Virus record (IMG/VR): IMGVR_UViG_3300045988_177007
Location: 1-35,064 of that record
DNA length: 35,064 bases
DNA from: a virus
Direction: 5' to 3' (one strand)
Part shown: piece after piece, positions 29,140 through 32,523 of the stretch
How positions within the stretch are numbered: the first letter of the stretch is position 1
Layout: each line of letters begins with the position of its first letter
Position numbers and translations under genes: made by a program
The notes under the pieces: model-generated
Seen by the model: only the letters and a program-made list of their open reading frames with translations
The model's database searches: none
Told to the model about the DNA's origin: nothing

Positions 29140-30590
29140 TGCGCAAGGAGATACCATCCGACATCGCGTCGGCGAGCGGCCTCAGGCCCGAGGACGCCCA
29201 GACCGTTCAAGCACTCTGCGTGACCTACCGCACGAAGCTCGCGCGCAATTACCTGCGACGGGGCTACTACCTGATGCACAAGCGCCCCAAGGAGCTGGGC
29301 ATCTCCGTGCCGCCGCACCTCCGCAACCTCGAGCAGGTGGTGGGCTGGCCCGCGAAGGCGGTGGACAGCCTCGCCAACCGCTCGCAGTTCGACGGCTTCG
29401 TTACCTCCGACGAGGACGCGACCGACGAGCTCGCGCGCATCGTCTCTGCCAACTCCATGAAGCGCCTGTACCGGCAGTCGGTGAAGAGCGAGCTGCAGTG
29501 CTGCTGCGCCTTCTTGACCGTCACGGCGGGCGACGAGGGCGAGCCGCCCGTGATCGTGTCCTCGCACCCAGCCACCGCCGCCGCGGCCATCTGGGACGAC
29601 CACATGCGCCGCATCGAGGCGGGCATGGTCGTGGTCGACCGCGACCGCAGGCCGCGCCACGGCGACGAGCCGACGTGGGTGGACGTCTTCACCGACGAGG
29701 CCGTCATCCGCATCAGGCGCGACGGAACCACCCGCAACTGGGCGGCGGAGTACGTCTGGCACTCCATGGGCCGCCCGCTCATGGTCCCCATGGCCCACGA
29801 GGCCACGCTGGAGCGCCCCTTCGGCAAGTCGCGCATCTCCCGCGCGGTGATGAACATCACAGACAACGCCATGCGCGCCTCCGTGCGCTCCGAGATCTCC
29901 GCCGAGTTCTTCACAAGCCCGCAGAAGTACCTGATGGGCGCGGACGACGACGTTCTCGGCGACATGAGCAAATGGGACGCATACATCGGCAACATCTTCT
30001 CCGTGTCCAAAGACGAGGACGGCGACGCGCCGACCTTCGGGCAGCTCGCACAGGGGAGCATGCAGCCGCACATCGACTATATGCGCTCGCTCGCCGCCCG
30101 CTTCTCGGGCGAGACGAACATCCCGCTCTCCGAGCTGGGCGTCGTGACGGACAACCCCAGCTCCGCCGAGGCGATCTACGCGGCCAAAGAGGCGCTCGTC
30201 ATCGACGCGCAGAACCTCAACGCCGACAACGGCGAGGCCCTGCGCGACGTGGCCCTCATGGCGCTCGCCGTCTCTCGCGGCACCGACTACGCGACCGTCG
30301 AGGGCGAGCGCCTGGCCGTCCAGGCGAAGTTCAAGAACCCCGCCATGCCGTCCGTGGTGAGCCAGTCCGACGCGATGGTCAAGATGATCAGCGTGCTGCC
30401 GTGGCTCGCGGAGTCCGACGTGGCCCTGGAGGAGCTTGGCTTCTCCGACGACCAGATCCAGCGCCTGCGGAGTGACCGCGCCAAGGCCGAAAGCCGCGCG
30501 CTCGTTCAGGCGGCCGCGCAGCTCCCGGCGGCGCAGTCGGCGGCGACGGAGGCCGCGCAGGGCGTGCCGCCCGTGACGACCGGTGCTTAG
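29139..30590 (+). CDS. Portal protein
   Basis: GTG at 29139 overlaps the terL stop. About 483 aa. Position and size fit. Confidence 0.7.
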   Translation: MRKEIPSDIASASGLRPEDAQTVQALCVTYRTKLARNYLRRGYYLMHKRPKELGISVPPHLRNLEQVVGWPAKAVDSLANRSQFDGFVTSDEDATDELARIVSANSMKRLYRQSVKSELQCCCAFLTVTAGDEGEPPVIVSSHPATAAAAIWDDHMRRIEAGMVVVDRDRRPRHGDEPTWVDVFTDEAVIRIRRDGTTRNWAAEYVWHSMGRPLMVPMAHEATLERPFGKSRISRAVMNITDNAMRASVRSEISAEFFTSPQKYLMGADDDVLGDMSKWDAYIGNIFSVSKDEDGDAPTFGQLAQGSMQPHIDYMRSLAARFSGETNIPLSELGVVTDNPSSAEAIYAAKEALVIDAQNLNADNGEALRDVALMALAVSRGTDYATVEGERLAVQAKFKNPAMPSVVSQSDAMVKMISVLPWLAESDVALEELGFSDDQIQRLRSDRAKAESRALVQAAAQLPAAQSAATEAAQGVPPVTTGA

Positions 30591-31998
30591 CCGCGAGGCG
30601 TTCGACCGCTACAGCCGCCAAGTGAGCAACCTCGCCGGCGGCGCGGGCGAGTATGTCCGGCGCATGGTCTCCTCCTTTCTCAGCCAGTACCCTGACGCGA
30701 GCGTGGCGGAGTGCCGCGATTTCGCGTGGCAGGTCATGCTCGAGGCCGTCCAGATCTACGGAGACGCATCGGCCACAGCCGCCGCCGACTACTACGACTC
30801 GGTCATGAGCGCGGCGGGGACCGGCGCGAAGCCCGCAGCACTGCACTCAGGCGTGGACGAAGAACAGGCCGAGAGGGTGGCCCGCTACCAGGCGGGCAAG
30901 CTCGTCAAGGGGGACCAGCTCGGCTTCGCCCGCGAGTGCGCCGCTTACGCGTCAGACGCCACGAGGCAGGCGGCCAACCGGACGATGCTGGGCAACGCCT
31001 TGCGCGACGAGGGGCACGGCGTGCGTTACGCCCGCGTCCCGACCGGGGCGGAGACCTGTACTTTCTGCCGGATGCTTTCCTCGCGCGGCTTCGTGTATCG
31101 GTCAAAGGAAAGCGCAGAGCTCTTCGGCCACAACCACCGTGGCTGCAACTGCGAGGTCGTCGCGTCCACCGACGCCGACGGCCTTGAGGGCTACGACCCG
31201 GACCGCGAGCGCGACATCTGGCAGAAATACGAGGAGATAGACGCCGACGAGAGCTTGAGCAGGGCCGAGAACGAAGCCGCAAAGCGAGCCGTGCTCGGCT
31301 TGAACGCGCCCAAAGACGCCGTCGCGGATGTCTCCGTGCTCAAACGGCTCGGCGTAACCGAGGCTGAGGTTGATGCGCCGCTTCCGGCGGGCTCGGCATC
31401 AGCGCCGTCTACCACGGGAAAATTCAAGTCTTATTCACTCCCGTCTGGAAGACGGTTCCTATTCAAAGCCAACATGGACCCAAGCATGCAAGACATGACG
31501 CCGGAAAGGCTGCTCTCTCTTTACGAAAAGGTCCCTGGCCATATCAAAGCCCGCATGCAGAAGGAAATCTATGTTGTCGACTATGCGAACCCGTCAGACG
31601 CGTACTGGAGGAAGCGATACCGTAATTTCTCCAGATCATATGCAACAGGCGGGGACGAAATTACCTTATGGGCATATACAGGGCACGATGACGCCTACCT
31701 CGTAAGGACGCTTTGCCATGAGACGGGCCATCTGGTCGATGCAGAGGAAGCGCCGTCCGGGAAGAACTTCAGCTCCGGCAAAACGTGGGACGATGCGATT
31801 ACGCTCGATTACAGGCACAGCAAAAAGACCCATCCGACGAAATACGCGGCCAATTCACCGGCTGAAGACTTCGCGGAGTCGGTGGCGCTCTATACTGTCG
31901 ACAGCGTCGATTTTAGGCGTGATTTTCCGAATCGCGCGACGATTCTCGATAGGTTTTTTGGGGGTGGCGACGGTGCCAACAGCTCAACGAGTCGATGA
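30583..31998 (+). CDS. MuF-like minor head protein fused to a C-terminal HExxH zinc-metallopeptidase-like domain (polymorphic-toxin architecture)
   Basis: GTG start. Central ...VRYARVPTGAETCTFCRMLSSRGFVYRS...FGHNHRGCNCEV matches the Mu F / SPP1 gp7 core (H..C.C). C-terminal LCHETGHLVD plus downstream FAESVALY gives HExxH...E. The last ~190 codons are about 48% GC. Confidence 0.65.
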   Translation: MLSREAFDRYSRQVSNLAGGAGEYVRRMVSSFLSQYPDASVAECRDFAWQVMLEAVQIYGDASATAAADYYDSVMSAAGTGAKPAALHSGVDEEQAERVARYQAGKLVKGDQLGFARECAAYASDATRQAANRTMLGNALRDEGHGVRYARVPTGAETCTFCRMLSSRGFVYRSKESAELFGHNHRGCNCEVVASTDADGLEGYDPDRERDIWQKYEEIDADESLSRAENEAAKRAVLGLNAPKDAVADVSVLKRLGVTEAEVDAPLPAGSASAPSTTGKFKSYSLPSGRRFLFKANMDPSMQDMTPERLLSLYEKVPGHIKARMQKEIYVVDYANPSDAYWRKRYRNFSRSYATGGDEITLWAYTGHDDAYLVRTLCHETGHLVDAEEAPSGKNFSSGKTWDDAITLDYRHSKKTHPTKYAANSPAEDFAESVALYTVDSVDFRRDFPNRATILDRFFGGGDGANSSTSR

Positions 31999-32149
31999 GC
32001 CGACGCCCAACGGCGGCGATTACTCAGAAATCATCTATATGGATGACAACTTCGATGTTGTCGATGAGGACGTCGCCACTAAGTGCGTAATCCGCGAGTG
32101 CATGGCCGACGGTTCCATCATTTGCGAAACGTTCGGGATGCTCTCATGA
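31973..32149 (+). CDS. Small acidic protein. Immunity-protein candidate
   Basis: GTG 31973, or ATG 32039. Overlaps the end of the toxin-like gene. Low GC. Confidence 0.2.
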   Translation: MPTAQRVDEPTPNGGDYSEIIYMDDNFDVVDEDVATKCVIRECMADGSIICETFGMLS

Positions 32150-32523
32150 GGCGCGACCTAGACCTCGTTCGCTCCATCCTCATCTATGTCGAGAAGGCAG
32201 AGGACGAGGTGGACGCGGAGGACCTCGTGACCGACGGCTGGCCGTTCGAGACCGTCGCGTACCACGTCAGGCTAATGGCCCACCACGGGCTCGTCGACCT
32301 GTCCGATGACACGAGGGACATGAACGGCGAGACGCTGTCGCTGGCTGTGTCCGGCCTCACGTGGGACGGGCAGGACTACCTCGACGCCATCCGCGACCCG
32401 AAGGTCTGGGCAAAGGTCAAGAAGACCGTCAAGGAGGCCGTTGGCTCCACTACGTTCGAGGTTGTGAAGCAGACGGGGGCGCTCGTCGCCATGTCCATGG
32501 TCAAGGCCAGCCTCGGGATGTAA
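32146..32523 (+). CDS. Hypothetical protein (DUF2513/YjcQ-like N-terminus)
   Basis: 125 aa. MRRDLDLVRSILIYVEKAEDE start. Overlaps the preceding stop. Confidence 0.35.
   Translation: MRRDLDLVRSILIYVEKAEDEVDAEDLVTDGWPFETVAYHVRLMAHHGLVDLSDDTRDMNGETLSLAVSGLTWDGQDYLDAIRDPKVWAKVKKTVKEAVGSTTFEVVKQTGALVAMSMVKASLGM

Follow-up and report, generated by a model that had tools for sequence, protein, structure and literature searches.

MuF polymorphic toxins, including the kind with a metallopeptidase domain and a small ORF behind it, were described in 2012 (Zhang et al., PMC3482391) and 2017 (Jamet et al., PMC5576092), and it has been proposed that temperate phages use MuF fusions to bring enzymes into cells together with their DNA. 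Here we analyzed a gene that shares with these toxins a portal-adjacent MuF N-terminus, a variable C-terminal enzyme, a small downstream open reading frame (ORF) and, as predicted from its genome, a temperate phage as carrier. The gene lies in the 35,064-nucleotide (nt) virus record IMGVR_UViG_3300045988_177007 of IMG/VR; this whole stretch is called the window, and all coordinates refer to it unless another locus is named. The gene (30583..31998, + strand) encodes a 471-amino-acid (aa) protein with a VG15/MuF4 domain, a linker and a C-terminal ATLF-like metallopeptidase domain, and it is followed by a gene for a 58-aa acidic protein. We found that the peptidase domain and this small ORF form one mobile two-gene module, which can be swapped with other C-terminal domains.

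Metallopeptidase domains are reported in 20% of 191 predicted MuF toxins (PMC5576092), and the window domain may belong to this class. The literature that we found on MuF metalloproteases is comparative genomics only, and experimental work was not found. The only MuF toxin class for which we found experimental validation is MuF-Apk2, in which (p)ppApp synthetase toxins are accompanied by downstream IapK/Aph1 immunity proteins, and one of these binds the enzyme and thereby obstructs its active site (PMC12226406). Like the window gene, MuF-Apk2 has a MuF N-terminus, a C-terminal enzyme and small genes directly downstream. However, its enzyme is a nucleotide pyrophosphokinase and not a peptidase, its N-terminus belongs to another MuF family, and its immunity proteins are unrelated to the 58-aa protein. 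The metallopeptidase module is very abundant yet has no model in Pfam, NCBIfam, PHROGs or PADLOC, and only the Apk2 enzyme class has been tested so far.

The window gene adds an Olsenella phage and a MuF4-type N-terminus to the known MuF metallopeptidase-toxin kind. While the MuF toxins of Jamet et al. are mostly in Firmicutes, the host lineage of the window is Coriobacteriia (Olsenella). The window also differs from MuF polymorphic toxins in that its domain is nearly MuF-exclusive and its partner is one conserved family of about 57 aa. We did not find described in the literature the one-to-one tie of an ATLF-like domain with a single family of ~57-aa partners, the near-exclusive link of the domain to MuF, or the universal trough in G+C content at third codon positions (GC3) reported below. 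SPP1 gp7 and Mu gpF, the models for portal-bound, DNA-associated head proteins, resemble the window gene in the Cys/His core motif and in the location after an SPP1-type portal gene, but neither has a peptidase domain.

The MuF4 part and the zincin domain

The 471-aa ORF starts with GTG and shares 8 nt with the end of the portal gene, stop codon included. Within the head/packaging module it is thus the gene directly downstream of the portal, which is the position of MuF genes. The Pfam VG15 alignment starts at residue 1 of the protein, and the VG15 head-protein domain (PF25310, E 1e-49) covers aa 1-215 (30583..31227, +). These residues hold CTFC...HNHRGCNC, i.e., a CxxC...HxHxxCxC core, and PHROG 13257/193 match aa 1-264. 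A Pfam search of aa 1-215 gave no match to PF04233 (Phage_Mu_F) or PF06152 at E<0.1. Alignment of VG15 with MuF1 by hhalign had a probability of 75% and an E value of 2.5e-5 over 46 columns, which span only the CxxC...HxxCxC core. The MuF superfamily had been enlarged by two new families, including MuF4, whose exemplar is from mycobacteriophage Angel (Jamet et al. 2017, PMC5576092). We found that this exemplar, Angel gp4, matches PF25310 at E 5e-32; therefore, VG15 corresponds to MuF4. Judged from these profile matches, the 471-aa gene product belongs to the VG15/MuF4 branch of the MuF minor head proteins. The initial annotation, made from the sequence of the window, had placed a MuF-like head protein beside the portal, and the VG15 match, the Angel match and the overlap with the portal gene all agree with it.

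The VG15 relatives of actinophages in GenBank are named variously, as 'MuF-like minor capsid protein' or 'head/capsid maturation protease', and VG15 proteins of Arthrobacter phages are labelled 'capsid maturation protease and VIP2-like ADP-ribosyltransferase toxin'. In PHROGs, the label 'head maturation protease' covers the N-terminal VG15 part, which is not itself a protease. In Angel (locus L095), the 929-aa MuF4 protein is followed by a small ORF, gp5 (L095 6189..6395), that matches ribosome modulation factor (PF04957, E 2e-10), an unexpected gene inside a head module.

Behind an Ala/Pro-rich linker (aa 216-276; 31228..31410, +), aa 277-471 (31411..31995, +) form an ATLF/PPEP/MtfA-like gluzincin metallopeptidase domain, of which the family profile matches aa 277-462. 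The domain contains HETGH (aa 379-383; 31717..31731, +) and EDFAES (aa 428-433; 31864..31881, +). Among 98-104 representatives, H379, E380 and E428 do not vary, and conservation of H383 reaches at least 90%. Of 120 full-length domains, 119 have both HExxH and the third-ligand motif intact. The AlphaFold2 (AF2) model of the domain has a predicted local distance difference test (pLDDT) score of 94.2; an earlier model built on a 4-sequence alignment (pLDDT 56) was set aside. In the model, H379, E380 and H383 lie in helix 91-109 and E428 lies in helix 147-160, so that HExxH on a helix, a Glu on a following helix and a zincin fold, the marks of a gluzincin, are all present.

When the family profile was compared with PDB sequences, it matched 9urd (E 3e-5) and PPEP-1 (E 2e-3), with HExxH and E-x-F-A-E-S aligned. 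Comparison with known structures gave a figure of 11.0 for PPEP-3 (158 residues aligned), 10.5 for PPEP-2, 9.3-9.8 for the ATLF domains of Certhrax, lethal factor (LF) and edema factor, 8.4 for MtfA and 7.4 for BACCAC_01431. The C-terminal domain is accordingly modelled as a zincin of the anthrax-lethal-factor/Pro-Pro-endopeptidase/MtfA fold with intact active-site residues, and endopeptidase activity is predicted. The confident fold and the intact HETGH and E428 bear out the initial annotation, which had described the last ~190 residues as a separate zincin module and had allowed for a region lacking a peptidase-like fold or for a chance HExxH; the fold is peptidase-like, and the motif is conserved in more than 100 diverged sequences. 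The proposed signature of HETGH plus a downstream Glu also stands, but the Glu of FAES (E432) does not appear to be the ligand. The most likely third ligand of the metal is E428, with which EDFAES begins, and E432 is often Asp in relatives. We take LF E735 and PPEP-1 E185 to be the equivalents of this ligand.

PPEP-1/2/3 and anthrax lethal factor (MEROPS M34, PF07737) have only 13-16% identity to the window domain. Unlike the window protein, they are not part of a capsid but are secreted as toxins, either stand-alone or multi-domain, and a small partner gene is lacking. The proteins of the MtfA/Peptidase_M90 and Peptidase_Mx1 families (PF06167, PF15890; PDB 3dl1, 4l7a, 9urd), to which the window matches fall under the curated cut-offs, are cellular regulators or lipoproteins and not phage proteins. 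ATLF PF07737 gave no match to the window protein at E<0.1 and matched just 3 of 98 relatives, weakly (best E 1.2e-4), and the sequence of the window domain alone gave no match among PDB sequences. The domain resembles M34 in structure yet forms a separate sequence family. No model for it was found in Pfam, NCBIfam, PHROGs or PADLOC; PADLOC had no match for the 471-aa gene, the 58-aa ORF or the DUF2513 gene that follows them, and the relatives of the domain in BFVD carry the name 'minor capsid protein' only.

An exhaustive profile search returned 1007 cluster representatives (50% identity) at E<=1e-3, of which 95 were at E<=1e-30, with the family motifs SYATGG, HExGH, EDFAES and FPNR. Searches with the single domain sequence had found nothing in phage DNA, four proteins by word index and one match by tblastn against 50,697 phage records, and the reading of the domain as rare that these had given was overturned by the profile search. 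The domain ends 15 or fewer residues from the C-terminus in 116 of 120 representatives. A Pfam scan of 98 representatives found MuF-type N-termini in 67 (43 Phage_Mu_F, 13 Phage_min_cap2 and 11 VG15), and the other domains found were one Hint/intein and two ADP-ribosyltransferase (ART) domains. Two proteins of ~7,700 aa carry the domain internally and are polyvalent proteins. Among the best 150 of the 1007 matches, which the architecture scan covers and beyond which rare non-MuF cases are possible, the domain is nearly exclusive to MuF-type head proteins of three families.

The acidic partner and the exchange of the cassette

The 58-aa ORF (31973..32149, +) is a candidate gene for an inhibitor or immunity protein. 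Its product has an isoelectric point of 4.05, with 13 Asp and Glu versus 3 Lys and Arg residues, and GGGGGTGG lies 5 nt upstream of its GTG start. We surveyed 84 domain-bearing loci (80 IMG/VR contigs and four metagenome contigs) for this gene. A homolog was found by phmmer in 72 of them, starting from 25 nt before to 60 nt after the peptidase stop codon, and a profile added 11 of the other 12 loci, where the homolog is divergent and 79 aa long; in the one locus left, a similar ORF of 74 aa overlaps the stop codon. Since at least 83 of the 84 loci have a copy directly behind the domain, the 58-aa ORF is a near-universal, strongly linked partner of the peptidase domain.

The alignment of the partner family starts precisely at the GTG of the window, which validates the start codon, and its consensus is M...RI.E.TPNGGDYSEIYY.D..GN.VDE..A..CVIREC..DG.L..ET.G. 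The family comprises 636 clusters at 90% identity, of 56-72 aa and mostly 57-61 aa, and its few named members are called 'hypothetical protein'. No match to the 58-aa ORF was found in Pfam, PHROGs, NCBIfam or PDB sequences. When the pair was sampled from the partner side (P0187, P0225 and P0231), the order was always terminase, portal, long MuF gene and small ORF, with the scaffold gene next in P0187 and P0225 and after four inserted genes in P0231. The MuF proteins beside all three carry the peptidase domain (E 1e-79 to 1e-85). Single partner sequences occur in hundreds to more than 1000 blocks of the assembly collection, mainly from gut metagenomes, and P0187 is indexed in 1171 blocks. In two metagenome proteins, P0004 and P0006, the reading frame continues past the peptidase domain, either into that of the small ORF or across it out of frame; the probable cause is indels in short contigs of low quality, not real fusion.

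The exchange of the module was seen in a comparison with L085, a prophage in a metagenome-assembled genome of an uncultured Olsenella sp. (contig CAKUIF010000009.1, 85.7 kb). By blastn, L085 2843-6714 corresponds to 27421-31296 and L085 7388-9798 corresponds to 32655-35064, which delimits an exchangeable cassette at 31297..32654 (+). The 1358 bp of the window cassette face 673 bp in L085, and these complete a 412-aa VG15 protein that is 89% identical to the window protein over aa 1-244 and has an unrelated C-terminus. No partner ORF or DUF2513 gene follows the VG15 gene of L085. Conversely, the loci L006, L007 and L001 share with the head region of the window only 31344/31345..32522, where their nucleotide identity is 76-82%. 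In L006, identity to the window is 42% in the N-terminus, 86% in the domain and 83% in the partner. The swap in L085, together with the sharing of the cassette alone in L006, L007 and L001, shows cassette exchange. The module exchange at the C-terminus that the initial annotation had read from the window is thereby confirmed, with another C-terminal domain at the same place in a near-identical backbone. Judged from L085, which lacks the domain, the peptidase domain is dispensable for the head module.

The left junctions lie in the linker, where the homology to L085 stops at 31296 and that to L006, L007 and L001 starts at 31344/31345, and recombination in the linker behind the MuF core is the insertion route of the module. 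The left junction comes directly after EEIDAD..L...E.EAAKRA, a conserved motif (31228..31310, aa ~216-243) that ends VG15 domains just before the C-termini diverge. This motif may be a demarcation or recombination motif comparable to VENN in CdiA. Within the cassette, a terminator-like hairpin with a T-run (32559..32584, hairpin 32559..32574, +) is kept in the locus L005 behind its alternative genes; a second one (32669..32696, hairpin 32669..32686, +) belongs to the backbone shared with L085, 5' of the scaffold gene. Other VG15 proteins carry VIP2-like ADP-ribosyltransferases. The alternative C-terminal domain of L085 (L085 6715..7239) has ~170 aa and no Pfam family, and its stretch DGEWHYWDMK may tentatively hint at a PD-(D/E)xK nuclease; there is no ORF of 50 aa or more between the VG15 gene and the scaffold gene of L085.

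A split arrangement was observed in L001 (L001 786..2749), where a 217-aa VG15 gene is followed by a gap of ~260 bp, a stand-alone gene for the 173-aa peptidase, the partner ORF and DUF2513. Host genes for a class-Ib tRNA synthetase, a permease, ilvD and acetolactate synthase come directly after. This arrangement, found in four samples (L001-L004), looks like a prophage remnant, and the module may have been kept after the rest of the phage decayed.

The gene next to the partner (32146..32523, +; 125 aa) is a passenger that belongs to DUF2513 (Pfam PF10711, E 5e-25; PHROG 585) and overlaps the 58-aa ORF by ATGA. Among the surveyed loci it was found only in L001-L004, L006 and L007, the closest actinobacterial cassettes. 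In L005, whose peptidase domain is 99% identical, the slot (L005 6748..7903) is filled by other genes, namely, a 56-aa ORF, a 189-aa protein with a zinc ribbon and DUF4145, and a membrane protein of 64 aa. Accessory genes thus insert preferentially in the slot behind the partner ORF, a hot-spot. DUF2513 as a second immunity protein was ruled out by its limited distribution, its replacement in L005 and its native GC3 of 0.90, and no relevant literature was found for DUF2513. Both small downstream ORFs of the initial annotation are present, but of these proposed cognate genes only the first proved to be a linked partner.

The peptidase domain has a GC content of 0.53, with the lowest 200-nt windows at 0.51, and the neighbouring genes have 0.66-0.70; the drop that had been reported is real, but the figure of ~48% given for it is not. 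In the window, GC3 is 0.87 in the VG15 part, 0.62 in the domain, 0.64-0.70 in the partner ORF and 0.94-0.97 in the neighbouring genes. Across 50 distinct loci, mean GC3 is 0.65 in the portal gene, 0.62 in the MuF N-terminal part, 0.41 in the peptidase domain, 0.41 in the partner ORF and 0.59 in the next large gene. GC3 is below that of the N-terminal part of the same gene for the domain in 49 of 50 loci and for the partner in 48 of 50. The trough (31411..32149 in the window; loci L005-L071) is seen at all GC levels, AT-rich phages included. It marks the peptidase-partner pair as a unit and does not date its exchange. The GC drop had been taken as a sign of recent transfer, and this reading was ruled out by the family-wide trough.

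Possible roles of the peptidase-partner pair

We consider it somewhat probable, from the architecture and by analogy, that the window encodes a virion-delivered effector protease that is kept inactive by its small partner in the producing cell. On the model of SPP1 gp7 and other MuF fusions, the MuF part would anchor the protein, in a few copies, to the portal within the capsid. The fusion protein would then exit the capsid with the DNA and place the protease in the cytoplasm of the newly infected cell, where it would cleave one or more host proteins. In the producing cell, the 58-aa acidic protein, which would be translated from the same late transcript, would bind the protease and block its activity, as IapK does for MuF-Apk2. 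Proteins leaving through the tail must unfold. Such unfolding would strip off a non-covalent inhibitor, and the enzyme would be armed only in the recipient cell. The cleavage may harm the recipient, as a toxin, or help the phage through takeover or anti-defence. The tight peptidase-partner pair makes this hypothesis directly testable, as does the natural pair of phages, the window and L085, that differ mainly in the cassette. The protease substrate, once found, would reveal what the phage gains from injecting a protease.

Several observations weigh against this proposal. The partner is conserved about equally with the enzyme and is not hypervariable as many immunity proteins are, and it could alternatively be a chaperone, a cofactor or a packaging adaptor. 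It sits in a late operon, and protection of lysogens would need separate expression. LXG, Rhs or CdiA-type N-termini were found on none of the 98 scanned representatives of the domain, which is atypical for a freely shared polymorphic-toxin domain. Searched alone against Pfam, the window protein gave Peptidase_Mx1 (E 9e-4), M90 (0.011) and Peptidase_Mx (0.012), all under the cut-offs. No literature was found on the packaging, ejection, proteolysis, toxicity or partner binding of this family.

The polymorphic-toxin architecture named in the initial annotation holds in one respect, since a constant N-terminus with alternative C-termini is seen in L085 and in the VG15 proteins with VIP2-like ARTs. 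A polymorphic toxin acting between bacteria, in which the protease is lethal or growth-inhibitory and the small ORF, maybe with DUF2513, is the immunity gene by which lysogens protect their kin, would account for this variation among near-identical phages, for the small ORF directly downstream, for a low-GC module comparable to the toxin tips of Rhs and CDI systems, and for the temperate phage, and it follows the framework of PMC5576092 and PMC3482391. We nevertheless regard it as rather unlikely. The domain occurs almost only on MuF proteins and not on other delivery systems among the 98 scanned, the partner gene is part of the late structural operon, where no promoter-like site was seen on the + strand, and DUF2513 has no linkage to the domain. 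In addition, a protease injected in so few copies should have no more than moderate toxicity, as Jamet et al. (PMC5576092) themselves note.

The labels in PHROGs and in many GenBank actinophage records, which call VG15-type genes head or capsid maturation proteases, would suit a morphogenetic enzyme that breaks down the scaffold or trims head proteins while the capsid matures, as would the lack of any other protease gene between portal and capsid in the window. These labels, however, fall on the N-terminal VG15 part, and the C-terminal domain matches no PHROG. A capsid maturation protease would be a required, conserved head component of its lineage, and the domain is missing in L085, which has 93-94% identical portal, scaffold and capsid genes and no substitute protease. 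A morphogenetic role is quite improbable because L085 manages without the domain; moreover, the module is a mobile accessory cassette common to unrelated backbones, and a dedicated partner gene is unexpected for a maturation protease. To our knowledge, SPP1-type heads with a separate scaffold need no protease. It would be just as surprising if the peptidase had no host target of its own and, once delivered, cleaved only its own fusion protein or others ejected with it. No domain is commoner in phage polyvalent proteins than zincin-like peptidases, which are predicted to process them (Iyer et al., PMC5512222), the domain does occur inside the two ~7,700-aa proteins, and a long flexible linker precedes it; yet the MuF domain is the sole other recognisable part in 116 of 120 representatives, which leaves no cargo to release, and a co-inherited dedicated partner better fits the control of a harmful activity. 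That HExxH arose by chance in a non-catalytic structural extension is scarcely credible: the window protein alone does fall under every Pfam peptidase cut-off, but the zincin fold is confident and HExxH and the third-ligand Glu are invariant in more than 100 diverged sequences.

Beyond the proposed effector protease and its inhibitor, a broader view is possible, although we hold it only tentatively. The pair may be an ancient, MuF-specific effector and inhibitor and rank among the commonest injected enzymes of human-gut temperate phages, with the partner as a new class of inhibitor (or a packaging chaperone) for M34-like zincins. The GC3 trough may then reflect selection, for silencing or slow translation of a harmful product, and not mere foreignness.

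The phage genome and its other genes

The window has an exact direct repeat of 141 bp at its two ends (1..141 and 34924..35064), and the L085 prophage is collinear across the end-to-start junction at 92-94% nucleotide identity. The terminal repeat and this collinearity indicate a phage genome that is complete at ~34.9 kb. The phage is of Olsenella type, with a gut bacterium as host, and is taken as temperate because it encodes two tyrosine integrases (8522..9388, -, and 20763..21869, +) and a Bro-N/KilAC antirepressor. A tape-measure protein is also encoded. The head module runs in the order terminase (27682..29139), SPP1-type portal (ending at 30590), 471-aa gene, 58-aa ORF, DUF2513 gene, scaffold (DUF4355; 32794..33264) and HK97-type capsid protein (33283..34167).

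An HNH endonuclease gene (26953..27324) lies just 5' of the terminase genes, and an HNH gene next to terminase is the usual layout for HNH-assisted cos packaging. A further 3.9 kb of the window (22798..26652) is missing from L085, which is otherwise 92-94% identical and has 16 bp there instead. This region carries genes for an IS1595-like transposase (22874..23929), an EcoRI-type adenine methyltransferase (24248..25414) and a GmrSD_N-HNH protein (25414..26580), and it is a second variable island with a probable restriction or anti-restriction role.

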